DNA of 64,000 nt. It comes from Escherichia coli. GTDB taxonomy: Bacteria > Pseudomonadota > Gammaproteobacteria > Enterobacterales > Enterobacteriaceae. Where the stretch lies: NCBI RefSeq assembly GCF_003790525.1, contig NZ_CP033635.1; one strand, written 5' to 3'. Positions 12,382 to 46,585 of the stretch are shown one piece after another. Position 1 is the first letter of the stretch. Every line of letters begins with the position of its first letter. The position numbers and the translations under genes are program-made. Below the pieces are notes generated by a model. The model was not told where the DNA came from. It saw nothing but the letters and a program-made list of their open reading frames with translations, and did no database searches.

Positions 12382-14037
12382 ATGACTCATCTTCCCCACT
12401 GGTGGCAAAACGGCGTTATCTACCAGATTTATCCAAAGAGTTTTCAGGACACCACGGGTAGCGGCACCGGCGATTTACGTGGCGTTATCCAGCGCCTGGA
12501 CTATCTGCATAAACTGGGCGTTGATGCCATCTGGCTAACCCCCTTTTATGTCTCTCCCCAGGTCGATAACGGTTACGACGTAGCAAATTATACGGCGATT
12601 GATCCCACCTATGGCACGCTGGACGATTTTGACGAACTGGTGACACAGGCAAAATCGCGTGGGATTCGTATCATTCTCGATATGGTGTTTAACCATACCT
12701 CTACCCAACATGCCTGGTTTCGCGAGGCGCTGAACAAAGAAAGCCCTTACCGCCAGTTTTATATCTGGCGCGATGGAGAACCAGAAACGCCACCGAACAA
12801 CTGGCGTTCAAAATTCGGTGGTAGTGCGTGGCGCTGGCATGCGGAAAGCGAACAGTACTATTTGCATCTCTTTGCACCAGAACAGGCGGATCTCAACTGG
12901 GAGAATCCAGCGGTACGCGCAGAGCTGAAAAAAGTCTGTGAGTTCTGGGCCAATCGTGGGGTCGACGGGTTGCGCCTGGATGTGGTGAATCTGATCTCCA
13001 AAGATCCGCGTTACCCTGAAGACCTGGATGGCGACGGGCGTCGCTTCTACACCGACGGGCCACGAGCACACGAGTTTTTGCACGAGATGAACCGCGATGT
13101 GTTTACGCCACACGGGTTAATGACCGTAGGTGAAATGTCCTCCACCAGCCTTGAGCATTGCCAGCGATACGCGGCACTGACAGGCAGTGAATTGTCGATG
13201 ACCTTTAATTTTCATCACCTGAAGGTCGATTATCCCGGTGGTGAGAAATGGACGCTGGCTAAACCTGACTTTGTGGCGTTGAAAACATTGTTCCGCCACT
13301 GGCAACAAGGAATGCACAACGTGGCATGGAATGCCTTGTTCTGGTGTAACCACGATCAGCCGCGCATTGTTTCTCGCTTTGGTGATGAAGGTGAATACCG
13401 CGTGCCTGCGGCAAAAATGCTGGCGATGGTGCTGCATGGCATGCAGGGAACGCCGTATATCTACCAGGGCGAAGAGATTGGCATGACCAACCCACATTTC
13501 ACGCGCATTACTGACTATCGCGACGTGGAGAGCCTCAATATGTTTGCCGAGCTGCGCAACGATGGTCGTGATGCCGACGAGTTATTGGCAATCCTCGCCA
13601 GTAAATCCCGTGACAACAGTCGCACACCCATGCAATGGACCAACGGCGATAATGCCGGGTTTACGGCTGGCGAACCGTGGATTGGCCTGGGCGATAACTA
13701 TCAGGAAATCAACGTAGAAGCAGCGCTGGCCGATGAGTCCTCGGTGTTTTACACCTACCAAAAGTTAATCGCACTGCGTAAGCAAGAAGCCGTCCTGACA
13801 TGGGGCGATTACCAGGATCTGCTGCCAAACAGCCCTGTATTGTGGTGCTATCGCCGTGAGTGGAAGGGGCAAACCTTGCTGGTCATTGCCAACCTTAGCC
13901 GTGAGACCCAACCCTGGCAGCCAGGGAAAATGCTCGGCAACTGGCAGCTTGTGATGCATAACTACGAAGAAGCCTCACCACAACCCTGTGCCATGACTTT
14001 ACGGCCTTTTGAGGCTGTCTGGTGGTTACAGAAGTAA
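12382..14037 (+). CDS. treC: Trehalose-6-phosphate hydrolase (GH13), 551 aa
   Basis: ORF 12235..14037; ATG at 12382 gives MTHLPHWWQNGVIYQIYPKSF, a typical GH13 N-terminus; the longer ORF-track start would overlap the treB 3' end. Confidence 0.93.
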   Translation: MTHLPHWWQNGVIYQIYPKSFQDTTGSGTGDLRGVIQRLDYLHKLGVDAIWLTPFYVSPQVDNGYDVANYTAIDPTYGTLDDFDELVTQAKSRGIRIILDMVFNHTSTQHAWFREALNKESPYRQFYIWRDGEPETPPNNWRSKFGGSAWRWHAESEQYYLHLFAPEQADLNWENPAVRAELKKVCEFWANRGVDGLRLDVVNLISKDPRYPEDLDGDGRRFYTDGPRAHEFLHEMNRDVFTPHGLMTVGEMSSTSLEHCQRYAALTGSELSMTFNFHHLKVDYPGGEKWTLAKPDFVALKTLFRHWQQGMHNVAWNALFWCNHDQPRIVSRFGDEGEYRVPAAKMLAMVLHGMQGTPYIYQGEEIGMTNPHFTRITDYRDVESLNMFAELRNDGRDADELLAILASKSRDNSRTPMQWTNGDNAGFTAGEPWIGLGDNYQEINVEAALADESSVFYTYQKLIALRKQEAVLTWGDYQDLLPNSPVLWCYRREWKGQTLLVIANLSRETQPWQPGKMLGNWQLVMHNYEEASPQPCAMTLRPFEAVWWLQK

Positions 14038-14048
14038 ATCTTCGCTAA

Positions 14049-14079
14049 GCCCCGGTAATGCCTGTCATTCCGGGGTTTT
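14049..14079 (+). terminator. Intrinsic terminator after treC
   Basis: gccccgg ... ccggggc stem followed by TTTT (14076-14079). Confidence 0.6.
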
Positions 14080-14222
14080 GCCTGTCAGCATGTTGTTTTT
14101 GTTGATTTTATAATCAAAAAATTCATTAAAAAATTTACATATCGCTGTAGCGCCCGTCATCCGTACGCTCTGCTTTTTACTTTGAGCTACATCAAAAAAA
14201 GTTCAAACATCCTTGATGCAAA

Positions 14223-14270
14223 GCACTATATATAGACTTTAAAATGCGTCCCAACCCAATATGTTGTATT
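14223..14270. promoter_or_regulatory. Two NrdR-box-like sites upstream of nrdDG
   Basis: gcactatatatagac (14223-14237) and cccaatatgttgtatt (14255-14270), centres about 3 helical turns apart, in an AT-rich promoter region. Confidence 0.6.
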
Positions 14271-14430
14271 AATCGACTATAATTGCTACTACAGCTCCCC
14301 ACGAAAAAGGTGCGGCGTTGTGGATAAGCGGATGGCGATTGCGGAAAGCACCGGAAAACGAAACGAAAAAACCGGAAAACGCCTTTCCCAATTTCTGTGG
14401 ATAACCTGTTCTTAAAAATATGGAGCGATC

Positions 14431-16569
14431 ATGACACCGCATGTGATGAAACGAGACGGCTGCAAAGTGCCGTTTAAATCAGAGCGCATCAAAGAAGCGA
14501 TTCTGCGTGCAGCTAAAGCAGCGGAAGTCGATGATGCCGATTATTGCGCCACTGTTGCTGCGGTTGTCAGCGAGCAGATGCAGGGCCGCAACCAGGTGGA
14601 TATCAATGAGATCCAGACCGCAGTTGAAAACCAGCTGATGTCGGGGCCATACAAACAACTGGCTCGTGCTTACATCGAGTACCGTCACGATCGCGACATT
14701 GAACGTGAAAAACGCGGTCGCCTGAACCAGGAGATCCGTGGTCTGGTCGAGCAGACCAACTCCTCGTTACTCAACGAAAACGCCAACAAAGACAGCAAGG
14801 TGATTCCAACCCAGCGCGACCTGCTGGCCGGGATCGTGGCTAAACACTATGCACGCCAGCACTTGCTGCCGCGTGACGTGGTGCAGGCACATGAGCGTGG
14901 CGATATTCACTATCACGATCTCGATTACTCGCCGTTCTTCCCGATGTTCAACTGCATGTTGATCGACCTGAAAGGCATGCTGACCCAGGGCTTTAAGATG
15001 GGGAACGCCGAGATTGAACCGCCGAAGTCGATCTCTACGGCAACCGCGGTAACTGCGCAGATTATTGCTCAGGTCGCCAGCCATATTTATGGCGGCACCA
15101 CCATTAACCGTATCGATGAAGTGCTGGCACCGTTTGTCACCGCCAGCTACAACAAACATCGCAAGACCGCGGAAGAGTGGAACATCCCGGACGCCGAAGG
15201 CTACGCTAACTCTCGTACCATCAAAGAGTGCTACGATGCCTTCCAGTCGCTGGAGTACGAAGTAAACACCCTGCATACCGCCAACGGTCAAACGCCGTTT
15301 GTAACCTTTGGTTTTGGTCTGGGCACCAGCTGGGAATCGCGCCTGATTCAGGAATCGATCCTGCGTAACCGTATCGCAGGCCTCGGTAAAAACCGTAAAA
15401 CGGCGGTGTTCCCGAAACTGGTGTTTGCGATTCGCGATGGCCTGAACCATAAAAAAGGCGATCCGAACTACGACATCAAACAGCTGGCGCTGGAGTGCGC
15501 AAGCAAGCGCATGTATCCGGATATCCTGAACTACGATCAGGTAGTGAAAGTCACCGGTTCGTTTAAAACCCCGATGGGCTGCCGCAGCTTCCTCGGCGTG
15601 TGGGAAAATGAAAACGGCGAGCAGATCCACGATGGTCGTAACAACCTCGGCGTGATCAGCCTGAACCTGCCGCGTATTGCTCTGGAGGCAAAAGGCGATG
15701 AAGCCACCTTCTGGAAGCTGCTGGATGAACGTCTGGTGCTGGCACGTAAGGCGCTGATGACCCGTATCGCTCGTCTCGAAGGCGTGAAAGCGCGCGTAGC
15801 CCCGATCCTCTATATGGAAGGTGCTTGTGGCGTGCGTCTGAATGCTGACGATGATGTTTCTGAAATCTTCAAAAACGGTCGTGCGTCTATTTCGCTGGGT
15901 TACATCGGCATCCACGAAACCATTAACGCGCTGTTTGGCGGCGAGCATGTGTATGACAACGAGCAGCTGCGCGCGAAAGGTATCGCCATTGTTGAACGTC
16001 TGCGTCAGGCGGTGGATCAGTGGAAAGAAGAAACGGGTTACGGTTTTAGCCTTTACAGCACGCCAAGTGAAAACCTGTGCGACCGCTTCTGCCGTCTCGA
16101 TACCGCTGAGTTTGGCGTGGTGCCGGGCGTGACTGATAAAGGTTACTACACCAACAGTTTCCACCTCGATGTGGAGAAGAAGGTGAACCCGTACGACAAG
16201 ATCGACTTTGAAGCGCCTTACCCGCCGCTGGCGAACGGTGGTTTCATTTGCTACGGCGAATATCCAAACATTCAGCACAACCTGAAGGCGCTGGAAGATG
16301 TCTGGGATTACAGCTATCAGCATGTACCGTATTACGGCACCAATACGCCGATTGATGAGTGTTACGAGTGTGGTTTTACCGGTGAGTTTGAGTGCACCAG
16401 TAAAGGCTTCACCTGCCCGAAATGTGGTAACCATGACGCCTCCCGTGTGTCGGTGACTCGCCGCGTGTGCGGATATTTAGGTAGCCCGGATGCGCGTCCG
16501 TTTAACGCTGGTAAGCAGGAAGAAGTTAAGCGCCGCGTTAAACATTTGGGGAATGGGCAGATAGGTTAA
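14431..16569 (+). CDS. nrdD: Anaerobic ribonucleoside-triphosphate reductase (class III), 712 aa
   Basis: N-terminal ATP-cone (VMKRDGCKVPFKSERIKEAI) and C-terminal glycyl-radical/Zn region (CxxC ... CPKCG). Confidence 0.96.
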   Translation: MTPHVMKRDGCKVPFKSERIKEAILRAAKAAEVDDADYCATVAAVVSEQMQGRNQVDINEIQTAVENQLMSGPYKQLARAYIEYRHDRDIEREKRGRLNQEIRGLVEQTNSSLLNENANKDSKVIPTQRDLLAGIVAKHYARQHLLPRDVVQAHERGDIHYHDLDYSPFFPMFNCMLIDLKGMLTQGFKMGNAEIEPPKSISTATAVTAQIIAQVASHIYGGTTINRIDEVLAPFVTASYNKHRKTAEEWNIPDAEGYANSRTIKECYDAFQSLEYEVNTLHTANGQTPFVTFGFGLGTSWESRLIQESILRNRIAGLGKNRKTAVFPKLVFAIRDGLNHKKGDPNYDIKQLALECASKRMYPDILNYDQVVKVTGSFKTPMGCRSFLGVWENENGEQIHDGRNNLGVISLNLPRIALEAKGDEATFWKLLDERLVLARKALMTRIARLEGVKARVAPILYMEGACGVRLNADDDVSEIFKNGRASISLGYIGIHETINALFGGEHVYDNEQLRAKGIAIVERLRQAVDQWKEETGYGFSLYSTPSENLCDRFCRLDTAEFGVVPGVTDKGYYTNSFHLDVEKKVNPYDKIDFEAPYPPLANGGFICYGEYPNIQHNLKALEDVWDYSYQHVPYYGTNTPIDECYECGFTGEFECTSKGFTCPKCGNHDASRVSVTRRVCGYLGSPDARPFNAGKQEEVKRRVKHLGNGQIG

Positions 16570-16753: not shown

Positions 16754-17218
16754 ATGAACTTTCATCAGTACTATCCTGTCGACATCGTCAACGGTCCCGG
16801 CACTCGCTGCACCCTGTTTGTCTCCGGGTGTGTTCATGAATGCCCCGGTTGCTATAACAAAAGCACATGGCGGGTAAATTCCGGTCAGCCATTTACCAAA
16901 GCAATGGAAGACCAGATCATTAACGATCTGAATGACACTCGTATCAAACGCCAGGGGATTTCCCTCTCCGGCGGCGATCCGCTGCATCCGCAAAACGTGC
17001 CGGATATTCTGAAACTGGTACAACGCATCCGCGCCGAGTGTCCGGGTAAAGACATCTGGGTGTGGACAGGCTATAAACTCGACGAACTCAACGCTGCGCA
17101 AATGCAGGTTGTTGATTTGATTAACGTGCTGGTCGACGGCAAATTTATGCAGGATCTAAAAGACCCTTCCCTGATCTGGCGCGGCAGCAGCAATCAGGTG
17201 GTGCATCATTTACGTTAG
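16754..17218 (+). CDS. nrdG: Anaerobic ribonucleotide reductase activating protein (radical SAM), 154 aa
   Basis: ORF MNFHQYYPVDIVNGPGTRCTLFVSGCVHECPGCYN... carries the radical-SAM cysteine motif. Confidence 0.95.
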   Translation: MNFHQYYPVDIVNGPGTRCTLFVSGCVHECPGCYNKSTWRVNSGQPFTKAMEDQIINDLNDTRIKRQGISLSGGDPLHPQNVPDILKLVQRIRAECPGKDIWVWTGYKLDELNAAQMQVVDLINVLVDGKFMQDLKDPSLIWRGSSNQVVHHLR

Positions 17219-17509
17219 TCACTCATCCAGCCGTTTTGTCGCGTCTTCATAAACGGCTGAGTTTTCTCTCTTACCAATAGCTATCACCAACACGAGTAAC
17301 TCTTTATCATTGACGGAATAGACCAGGCGATATCCCAGTGTGCGCAGCTTAATTTTGTAGCAGTCCGGTAAATCCCGCAGTTTAGCCGATGGATTGCGCG
17401 GCCTTTTCAGCACATCCTCAAGCTTTTTTTTAAATTGTTCCCGGACTGTCACGCCCAGTTTTTGCCACTCTTTCAGCGCCCGCGGATCAAACGCCAGCTC
17501 ATAGTTCAT
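17219..17509 (-). CDS. RelE/ParE-family type II toxin (about 96 aa)
   Basis: Inside ORF 17219..17587 the ATG at 17507-17509 gives MNYELAFDPRALKEWQKLGVTVREQFKKKLEDVLKRPRNPSAKLRDLPDCYKIKLRTLGYRLVYSVNDKELLVLVIAIGKRENSAVYEDATKRLDE, which I recognise as closely RelE-like; it overlaps the upstream antitoxin by 11 nt. Confidence 0.85.
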   Translation of the reverse strand: MNYELAFDPRALKEWQKLGVTVREQFKKKLEDVLKRPRNPSAKLRDLPDCYKIKLRTLGYRLVYSVNDKELLVLVIAIGKRENSAVYEDATKRLDE

Positions 17510-17741
17510 CCAGTCGGACCTTAATGGCCTCTTGTGGGTTGGCCAGTCGTTCCCTGACAGTGCGTAACAAGGCTTCTTCACTATCACTGACAGTGAGCGT
17601 TTTTACCGGCATTCGTCCATTTTCCGCAACGTACTGAAACAGCAGCCGCACTGCTTCAGTAGGCGTAATATTTAATTTTTCCAGCACCGCATAAGCCTCA
17701 TTTTTCAGTTTGTCATCCAGGCGGACGTTAAGTGTGGCCAT
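17499..17741 (-). CDS. RelB/DinJ-family antitoxin (80 aa)
   Basis: ORF MATLNVRLDDKLKNEAYAVLEKLNITPTEAVRLLFQYVAENGRMPVKTLTVSDSEEALLRTVRERLANPQEAIKVRLDEL resembles RelB; RBS GGAGGC precedes the ATG at 17739-17741. Confidence 0.85.
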   Translation of the reverse strand: MATLNVRLDDKLKNEAYAVLEKLNITPTEAVRLLFQYVAENGRMPVKTLTVSDSEEALLRTVRERLANPQEAIKVRLDEL

Positions 17742-26555: not shown

Positions 26556-26599
26556 AGTTTCCCCCGTTGTAAAGCGTGCGCCAGATAAGACACAACAGC

Positions 26600-26656
26600 G
26601 TCGCATCAGGCATCTCGCACAACCGCCGGATGCGGCGTGAATGCCTTATCCGGCGG
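26600..26656. repeat. REP element between ytfQ and ytfR
   Basis: gccggatgcggcgtgaatgccttatccggc within the ytfQ-ytfR intergenic region. Confidence 0.85.
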
Positions 26657-36207: not shown

Positions 36208-36389
36208 CAGCCAGTTTTTCATTTTTCAGCTGTCTGAATTTTAACCCTCTGGCGGCTTTACAGTACCTTACGCTATACTAGCCACTGAAAATGCCGGTTC
36301 ACTTTCTTCGAATCGGCTTTCAATGTGTATTTCACACAAATTAATCAACTTCCCCTTCCGAGGATCTGGCCTGAAAGGTCGGATAAGAT

Positions 36390-38325: not shown

Positions 38326-38883
38326 ATGACCCTACGCAAGATTCTGGCACTCACCTGCCTGCTGTTGCCGATGATGGCTTCCGCACATCAGTTCGAAACC
38401 GGTCAGCGAGTGCCGCCGATTGGCATCACCGATCGTGGCGAGTTGGTGCTTGATAAAGATCAGTTTAGCTACAAAACCTGGAACAGCGCGCAGTTAGTGG
38501 GAAAAGTGCGAGTACTGCAACATATTGCTGGTCGCACCTCTGCAAAAGAGAAAAACGCGACGCTGATTGAAGCGATTAAATCAGCAAAGTTACCGCACGA
38601 TCGTTACCAGACCACCACCATTGTTAACACCGACGACGCAATTCCGGGTTCCGGCATGTTTGTGCGCAGCAGTCTGGAGAGTAATAAAAAGCTTTATCCC
38701 TGGTCGCAGTTTATTGTTGATAGCAATGGCGTCGCACGCGGTGCCTGGCAGCTGGATGAAAAAAGTTCCGCTGTAGTGGTGCTGGATAAAGACGGTCGCG
38801 TGCAATGGGCCAAAGACGGGGCGCTTACTCAGGAAGAGGTGCAGCAAGTGATGGACCTGCTGCATAAATTAATTAATAAATAG
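38326..38883 (+). CDS. ytfJ: Periplasmic protein YtfJ, 185 aa
   Basis: [37 protein letters not shown]... (signal peptide). Confidence 0.9.
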
Positions 38884-39613: not shown

Positions 39614-39802
39614 TTCTCCACCTCGTCTCTGTGAGCGGTGTTAACTTATTGTTTTACTTATACCCTATCGTTAATGAATGCGCCAACTGTGATAGTGTCA
39701 TCATTTTCAAAGCGTAAAATTGTGGCATTCTTCACTGTTCTATAAGTAATACGTTTATTCTCCCTTTTCTTTCGTATTCCCGATGATAAAAGGATGTCCC
39801 TG

Positions 39803-45091: not shown

Positions 45092-46585
45092 TCAGTCATT
45101 CAGTGGAAGTAATTCATTGTTGTAACTGGTGTACTTACCTTCAACGGTAAGCAAACTGCCGTTTTTATCAAGATGCGCCGCATCGAGTTGTCGAGTCTCA
45201 TTACGCCGCTTCGCATCACGTACCAGCCCATCGCCTACGTAATAAATATAGTGGTCATCATGAGCAAAGGTATCTGATAATTGACCATTGGCGTATTTAA
45301 ACCACGTCCATTGGCCTTTCAGTTCAAAATGCTCAACCGTGTCTTCATCAATAAAATACGTATAGCGATCGTCATGTGCTAAATAATTTAATGGTGTGCC
45401 ATCGGGGCTTTTATACCACTGCCATTGCCCATTAATATCAAAAATAGTCACATCATCGCGCGCGATGAAATAAATTTTGTTCCCTACAACATTAGCACCT
45501 TTCTGTAATTCTTGTTGTGGGTCTGGTAAATGTATGACCGACAGCGTTTTTTCGACCGCAGATATATATTTCACCAGATAGAGCGAATCTTTATATTGCG
45601 CCACATTCTCCGTCAGCGGGCGAAAATATTCCGGATCAACATCAGGAATTGTCGCAACCCGGCAGTCATTAGCACGCCTGGAAGCATCACGCGTCATCCA
45701 GGTTACTTTATCCCGCTGTAGGTCAAATATACTTCGGCAGTTTTTACCGAACGCATAACGTTTCTCCCCGTCTTTATCGCGATAAATTAGCAGTGAACCG
45801 GCTATCCAGCGCACAATATGAAAGGTATCCGGATCGGCGTTGATGGCATCTCCATTCACAAAGACCTGCGATTTAGTCCGCCAGATTGTATCCCAGGGTC
45901 CCGGATTACTTTTGCTTTCGCAGCTATTAGGTGAATAAATAATGGGACGACGTGTCCAGGGTTTAATGTCAAGAATAGAATACCCTTGCGCACTACCTAA
46001 CCAGCGCCCCTGAAAGTAAAGATTGCGACGATCTTTCAGCACATCCGCGGAATCAAGTGAATTCATCCTTCCCCCCACCTGTTGCAGCGAATCCATATCG
46101 ACCTGCTTTTCGCCGTGATTATCATCCGTGCGTTCGCCATCAAAATAGAGGCTGTCTTTATCGGCAGCAAAACGCCCCCATGCGCGGAATGTTGCGGCAT
46201 CGACTTTCGGTGTTCCCGGCGGGTTCTGAACTATTTTCCCTGCCCATAAAATATGGCGGCCATCAGTCAACCAGTCGAAACGCCAACCACCGTTGGTTCT
46301 GATATAAGCGCCACCATCCACCCGCACAAAATCATTATTGATATCATCAGGAGAATCATATTCATCATCAGTGCCGTCAGATACACGGCGCAGTTGTTTG
46401 AACCTCACCTGCGGTAAATGAATATCCGGAAAATAGAGTCCGTAACCATCGCTATCTTCAACAATATATTTTGTTCCTTGCCCCCACGGTTGGTAATAAA
46501 AAGAGGCAGATGGTACGCCGGAGCAGGCTATTGAATTGAGTGAAAATAAAGCCAGTGCGAGACAAACGGGTTTAATTGGTAACAT
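45092..46585 (-). CDS. Secreted repeat protein, paralogue A (497 aa), DKNYY-like repeats; function unknown
   Basis: ORF with N-terminal hydrophobic signal-like segment MLPIKPVCLALALFSLNSIAC; repeated motifs (GKIVQNPPGTPKVDAATF, DKDSLYFDGERTDD, VNGDAINADPDTFHIVRW, KIYFIARDD, YTYFIDED, YIYYVGDG); clearly paralogous to the adjacent ORF. Confidence 0.75.
   Translation of the reverse strand: MLPIKPVCLALALFSLNSIACSGVPSASFYYQPWGQGTKYIVEDSDGYGLYFPDIHLPQVRFKQLRRVSDGTDDEYDSPDDINNDFVRVDGGAYIRTNGGWRFDWLTDGRHILWAGKIVQNPPGTPKVDAATFRAWGRFAADKDSLYFDGERTDDNHGEKQVDMDSLQQVGGRMNSLDSADVLKDRRNLYFQGRWLGSAQGYSILDIKPWTRRPIIYSPNSCESKSNPGPWDTIWRTKSQVFVNGDAINADPDTFHIVRWIAGSLLIYRDKDGEKRYAFGKNCRSIFDLQRDKVTWMTRDASRRANDCRVATIPDVDPEYFRPLTENVAQYKDSLYLVKYISAVEKTLSVIHLPDPQQELQKGANVVGNKIYFIARDDVTIFDINGQWQWYKSPDGTPLNYLAHDDRYTYFIDEDTVEHFELKGQWTWFKYANGQLSDTFAHDDHYIYYVGDGLVRDAKRRNETRQLDAAHLDKNGSLLTVEGKYTSYNNELLPLND

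Follow-up and report, generated by a model that had tools for sequence, protein, structure and literature searches.

The paired A/T-rich palindromes upstream of nrdD constitute, with a probability that we put at about 97%, the NrdR operator of the Escherichia coli nrdDG promoter. Published work has predicted this operator, demonstrated its binding in vitro, and modeled its structure, and the assignment is correct but already known. Sequence, spacing, position in the promoter, position weight matrix (PWM) score, conservation, and the presence of nrdR in the genome, which together make up every NrdR operator criterion that can be tested computationally, all agree with it. The locus serves as a positive control, in which a reader working from sequence alone recognized a real, experimentally validated repressor site.

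Locus and gene context

The window is the whole stretch of DNA that was analyzed (64,000 nucleotides). Of 5,426 complete E. coli genomes, 5,425 match an 801-bp segment of the window (13900-14700). The corresponding DNA of strain SMS-3-5 is 100% identical to this segment, and its annotation gives treB-treC followed by nrdD-nrdG as the gene order at the locus. The paired boxes occupy the treC-nrdD intergenic region, with the nrdD start codon 162 to 208 bp downstream of them. The genes of the operon are as follows.

14431-16569, plus strand: nrdD, the regulated gene, anaerobic (class III) ribonucleoside-triphosphate reductase (annotated in RefSeq on identical DNA; Pfam NRDD at 8e-193, Gly_radical, and ATP-cone)
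16754-17218, plus strand: nrdG, the second gene of the operon, activating radical-SAM enzyme (RefSeq annotation of identical DNA; Pfam Fer4_12 and Radical_SAM)

The gene for the repressor itself, nrdR (WP_000543535.1), lies outside the window and is annotated at 459158-459607 of NC_010498.1, the genome in which the 801 bp searched match the window with 100% identity. Directly 3′ of nrdG, the annotation of the matching genome places a RelE-family toxin and RelB/DinJ antitoxin pair (17219-17509 and 17499-17741, both on the minus strand). Just past the treC stop codon is a G+C-rich inverted repeat, CCCCGG...CCGGGG, followed by TTTT (14050-14079, plus strand). Judged by its sequence, this repeat is likely a treC terminator that would insulate the nrdD promoter; a simple terminator scan did not call it, as its loop exceeds the length set by the scan rule. 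Elsewhere in the window, five features matched Rfam at gathering level, namely, a Magnesium-II riboswitch aptamer (9560-9675, minus strand), ES239 sRNA (39680-39802, minus strand), an RpsF leader (62409-62493, minus strand), STnc450 sRNA (36271-36328, plus strand), and naRNA4 (26579-26655, minus strand), all of which are ordinary E. coli features.

Sequence, register, and spacing of the boxes

Sites were scored with a symmetrized PWM built from 11 published NrdR boxes associated with ribonucleotide reductase (RNR) genes and drawn from E. coli nrdAB and nrdHIEF and from Pseudomonas aeruginosa nrdAB, nrdDG, nrdJ, and topA; the two boxes tested here were left out of it. The operator consists of the following parts.

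14223-14238, no strand assigned: NrdR box 1, GCACTATATATAGACT (published coordinates -208 to -193 from the nrdD ATG; FIMO p = 3.0e-5; PWM rank 4 of 63,985)
14239-14253, plus strand: 15-bp linker, TTAAAATGCGTCCCA, holding the -10 hexamer TAAAAT (14240-14245) and ending on the putative transcription start, A14253
14254-14269, no strand assigned: NrdR box 2, ACCCAATATGTTGTAT (published coordinates -177 to -162 from the nrdD ATG; FIMO p = 3.2e-7; PWM rank 1)

Both 16-mers and their positions relative to the ATG are given in Table S2 of bioRxiv 10.1101/2025.03.28.645925, so that the mapped NrdR sites coincide with the boxes in the window and do not lie elsewhere. The first-pass annotation had described two A/T-rich palindromic boxes, and each of the strings that it quoted does occur once in the window (14223-14237 and 14255-14270). 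The observation stands except for the box limits, which, compared with the published 16-mers, left off the last base of box 1 and shifted box 2 by +1. In the correct register, box 2 is self-complementary at 10 of 16 positions and scores +16.9 bits, versus 4 of 16 positions and -23 bits in the shifted register. The core of box 1, CTATATATAG, is a perfect 10-bp palindrome.

The conserved positions of an NrdR box are C4, A6, A8, T9, T11, and G13, with a required C-to-G gap of 8 bp (bioRxiv 10.64898/2026.05.11.724285). All six are present in box 1 and all six in box 2, and eight bases separate C14226 from G14235 and C14257 from G14266. Work from the group that published the binding study discussed below (FEBS J 2025) further indicates that NrdR binding requires two boxes. 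The linker of an NrdR operator is expected to span 15 to 16 bp, placing the box centers 31 to 32 bp, or whole helical turns, apart; here a 15-bp linker sets the centers 31 bp (~2.95 turns) apart, in accord with the earlier estimate of about three helical turns.

The E. coli nrdHIEF and nrdAB operators (box 1 and box 2 of the latter) resemble that of nrdDG in having two 16-bp boxes with C4, A6, T11, and G13 and a 15-bp linker, and the three operators show similar KD values (113 to 160 nM). In E. coli K-12, the whole 57-bp nrdDG operator is identical to that in the window, and its boxes lie at the same distances from the ATG (-208 to -193 and -177 to -162). The E. coli nrdDG boxes were reportedly predicted by Rodionov and Gelfand in 2005 and are said to have been studied by Torrents et al. 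in 2007. The orthologous nrdDG promoter of Salmonella Typhimurium, which is not identical in sequence, has the same architecture, in which box 1 likewise overlaps an FNR site, and mutations in its boxes alter expression of an nrdDG-lacZ reporter; insolubility of the protein prevented direct binding measurements in that species (PMC2892513). As in E. coli, the class III RNR genes of P. aeruginosa (nrdDG) are preceded by a box pair with a 31-bp spacing. However, the P. aeruginosa boxes are much closer to the start codon (-57 to -11, versus -208 to -162 in E. coli), and the 178-nt nrdD 5′ untranslated region (UTR) with DnaA boxes that is found in E. coli sets the two species further apart.

Promoter anatomy and FNR sites

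Two FNR sites precede and partly overlap the operator.

14182-14195, no strand assigned: FNR site 2, TTGAGCTACATCAA (center at -64.5, PMC10425943; 9 of 10 positions fit the consensus; conserved, with an offset of -41 relative to box 1)
14213-14226, no strand assigned: FNR site 1, TTGATGCAAAGCAC (center at -33.5, PMC10425943; conserved at this offset in Enterobacteriaceae)

The site centers, -33.5 and -64.5, are those given in PMC10425943, which cites Roca et al. 2008; the same source reports that FNR site 2 is essential for anaerobic activation and treats the FNR geometry as a mystery. The published FNR probe, from K-12, and the window disagree at a single position, located between FNR site 2 and FNR site 1 (AAAGCTCAAAC in K-12 and AAAGTTCAAAC here), while the operator itself shows no difference.

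Since the published FNR centers lie at -33.5 and -64.5, we infer that transcription starts at A14253, with TAAAAT (14240-14245) as the -10 hexamer. Relative to this start, box 1 would occupy -30 to -15 and box 2 +2 to +17, such that the boxes bracket both the -10 hexamer and the start site. Among 74 distinct 15-bp linkers from Enterobacterales, positions 2, 3, and 7 are T, A, and T in 69, 69, and 62, respectively. This TAnnnT pattern, kept even where the linkers of the family are otherwise unrelated, lends support to the putative -10 element, and in the Enterobacteriaceae alignment described below, conservation of the hexamer reaches 97%. A simple sigma-70 scan of 13950-14500 returned no promoter on the plus strand. 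We do not count this result against the promoter, since such a scan is expected to miss a promoter that depends on an activator and has a poor -35 element.

The last 4 bp of FNR site 1 (14223-14226) are also positions 1 to 4 of box 1, an overlap that has been remarked upon for Salmonella (PMC2892513). These four bases read TCAC in most Enterobacteriaceae (half-site ATCAC, 9 of 10 consensus positions) versus GCAC in E. coli and E. albertii (AGCAC, 8 of 10), a change that is predicted to weaken FNR site 1 in the E. coli/E. albertii lineage.

A second -10-like sequence, TATAAT (14278-14283, plus strand), lies 9 bp downstream of box 2 within a small conserved island (14264-14283), and its T1, A2, A5, and T6 are conserved across Enterobacteriaceae (TAnnAT). 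It is doubtful that this sequence serves as the -10 element for another nrdD promoter, one with its start near 14290; no -35 element matching it is present, and we found no support in the literature for a second promoter. If one did exist, the FNR sites would fall at about -71 and about -102, distances that are canonical for class I activators, and the odd FNR geometry (PMC10425943) would be explained in part. Box 2 would then lie over the -35 region of the second promoter, and one NrdR operator would repress two promoters.

We also considered a third NrdR box near 14286, 31 to 32 bp downstream of box 2, because CTACTACAG resembles box 2 of nrdAB. This candidate scored -3.7 bits, was not conserved, and was rejected.

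NrdR binding and a proposed mechanism

The 57 bp at 14218-14274 (plus strand) exactly match the nrdDG probe used in a published study of NrdR binding (PMC12176259, Rozman Grinberg et al., FEBS J 2025). On that probe, microscale thermophoresis (MST) gave purified E. coli NrdR a KD of 160 ± 37 nM in the ATP-dATP state and 152 ± 42 nM in the ADP-dATP state, while no binding was detected with ATP alone (PMC12176259). When carrying dATP together with ATP or ADP, NrdR is a tetramer in which each pair of Zn-ribbons takes one box and bends the DNA sharply, whereas ATP alone in the ATP-cone drives the protein into higher oligomers that are unable to bind DNA (PMC12176259). The attribution of the palindromes to NrdR repression of nrdDG in the first-pass annotation is thus supported by the exact published coordinates, by the agreement of PWM and phylogenetic footprint, and by NrdR binding to an identical 57-bp probe.

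The geometry of the promoter suggests how repression might work. With boxes 31 bp apart on the same helix face, bracketing the putative -10 hexamer TAAAAT and start site, bound NrdR would cover -30 to +17 and probably exclude RNA polymerase. Since box 1 and FNR site 1 have 4 bp in common, NrdR on box 1 probably also competes with an auxiliary FNR activator dimer at site 1, an idea that has been put forward for Salmonella (PMC2892513). The operon for the anaerobic reductase would then be switched on through FNR when oxygen is absent and damped when dATP is abundant compared to ATP. Within about 230 bp upstream of nrdD, four inputs appear to be brought together: oxygen through FNR and the dATP/ATP ratio through NrdR, alongside the core promoter itself and DnaA at the 5′ UTR.

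Conservation across Enterobacterales and within E. coli

Species-representative genomes were scanned with a degenerate coding pattern of the NrdD N terminus (KRDGC[K/Q]VPF), a search that is blind to the upstream DNA. Every one of the 120 loci found was NrdD; most belonged to Enterobacterales, joined by Ferrimonas, Photobacterium, and some metagenome-assembled genomes (MAGs). The footprint set (n = 111) comprised the window and the 110 loci having at least 450 bp of upstream sequence, and the best box pair was sought over spacings of 20 to 45 bp. The spacing of the best pair was 31 bp in 90 regions, 32 bp in 18, 33 bp in 2, and 24 bp in 1. Spacings of 31 to 33 bp were thus found in 110 of 111 real regions, compared to 11% of shuffled versions, and the real pair outscored every shuffle in 108 of the 111. 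The same distances were obtained when the two best nonoverlapping single boxes were chosen without a spacing rule.

Among 94 distinct operators, C4, A6, A8, T9, and G13 were invariant in both boxes, and T11 was present in 93 of 94 copies of box 1 and in all 94 of box 2, counts that are partly circular in that the PWM selected the sites. Because of this circularity, we made an alignment blind to the motif from 66 distinct Enterobacteriaceae upstream regions, which have a median identity to the window of 64%. The islands of conservation in this alignment are exactly FNR site 2, FNR site 1, box 1, TAAAAT, and box 2, while the remaining nrdD 5′ UTR has a mean conservation of 53%.

Within E. coli, 4,565 of 5,422 genomes carry an identical 57-mer operator, whereas no more than 919 reach 99% identity over the 801-bp region. 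Of 5,426 genomes, 5,419 match a 30-mer over box 1 (14216-14245) at 99% identity or more across at least 80% of the 30-mer. We sampled six genomes in which the 57-mer was not identical. Five carried changes solely outside the boxes (at 14249, 14253, or 14270; many positions were affected in one strain), and the sixth carried G14263A in box 2, a change toward the consensus at the noncritical position 10. The pattern in this small sample is consistent with constraint on the key box positions.

Conservation of this kind could also arise if NrdR bound in vitro but contributed little to nrdDG, with promoter and FNR elements mainly accounting for what is conserved in vivo. Indeed, the boxes overlap the FNR site 1 half-site (which positions 1 to 4 of box 1 double as), the -35/-10 spacer, and the initial transcribed region, and the -10 hexamer explains the conservation of the linker. 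The invariant positions, however, are specific to NrdR in both boxes, and box 2 lies downstream of the transcription start, where no promoter element is expected. Expression data bear on the question from both sides. In E. coli K-12, deletion of the nrdR ATP-cone derepressed nrdD only weakly under aerobic conditions (logFC of 1.26), and the physiological weight of the operator compared to FNR control may therefore be modest or condition dependent. Yet an FNR-dependent promoter is largely off in air, which makes this an insensitive test, and the Salmonella box mutants did change expression (PMC2892513). In K-12, a phased box pair and differential expression are combined only in the three RNR operons. 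We regard a minor role for NrdR at nrdDG as distinctly unlikely.

It is still less probable that the A/T-rich tract is primarily a silencing site for the nucleoid protein H-NS, with NrdR secondary. The nrdDG promoter-binding factors listed in PMC12176259 include H-NS, and the region is A/T rich, as this explanation would have it, but H-NS needs neither a C-N8-G palindrome nor a phased 31-bp pair, and its binding is compatible with that of NrdR.

Statistical strength of the box pair

The first-pass annotation had proposed matching the boxes to an NrdR PWM, with poor scores counting against it. Scores were far from poor: over 63,985 positions in the window, box 2 at 14254 ranked first (16.9 bits) and box 1 at 14223 ranked fourth (12.4 bits). 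At a spacing of 31 bp, the pair sums to 29.3 bits, while the next unrelated pair in the 64-kb window reaches 7 to 10 bits. In 200 dinucleotide-preserving shuffles, the maximum pair score was 23.2 bits, and none reached 29.3. By chance, 64 kb should hold 0.9 sites with the score of box 1 and 0.04 sites with that of box 2. Box 2 and the phased pair are significant, whereas box 1 by itself is not. A reading in which no repressor is dedicated to the palindromes, and they are chance A/T-rich sequence or promoter DNA of a generic kind (TATA runs resembling a -10), is hardly credible, for although the region is A/T rich, the core of box 1 resembles -10-like sequence, and its single-site score is expected about once per window, no shuffle attains the score of the phased pair, the non-A/T bases C4 and G13 are invariant, the spacing of 31 to 33 bp persists in 110 of 111 promoters despite unrelated linkers, and the measured binding of NrdR to this exact DNA (PMC12176259) has already refuted it.

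Three other NrdR-box-like PWM matches were found in the window, at 46459-46474 (14.1 bits; lacking G13), 38515-38530 (12.7 bits), and 57711-57726 (12.4 bits), each of them alone, with no phased partner. As NrdR sites, they were set aside as probable chance matches, the phased partner being absent. Genome-wide scans in the literature likewise found that lone FIMO matches are mostly false positives and are uncorrelated with NrdR-dependent expression.

DnaA boxes and other elements of the nrdD 5′ UTR

The 5′ UTR downstream of the operator carries two perfect DnaA boxes.

14319-14327 and 14396-14404, minus strand: perfect DnaA boxes, TTATCCACA, in the same orientation and 77 bp apart, with a weak partner box at 14407-14415

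Both UTR boxes are nearly invariant across the 66 Enterobacteriaceae, while the UTR around them is ~53% conserved. A DnaA chromatin immunoprecipitation sequencing (ChIP-seq) study reported a 62-fold peak upstream of nrdD with a double box, TTAAGAACAggTTATCCACA, which corresponds to 14396-14415 in the window (PMC11317965). The DnaA boxes of the nrdD 5′ UTR are thus already published.

A search of Rfam at gathering thresholds gave no match in the nrdD 5′ UTR. The sequence ACCGGAAAACG, which occurs twice in an A-rich tract of the UTR (14349-14381, plus strand), was poorly conserved across Enterobacteriaceae, had no Rfam match, and was dropped. Across the whole window, three perfect DnaA boxes were found compared to 0.43 expected, the third copy of TTATCCACA being located at 58622-58630 on the plus strand.
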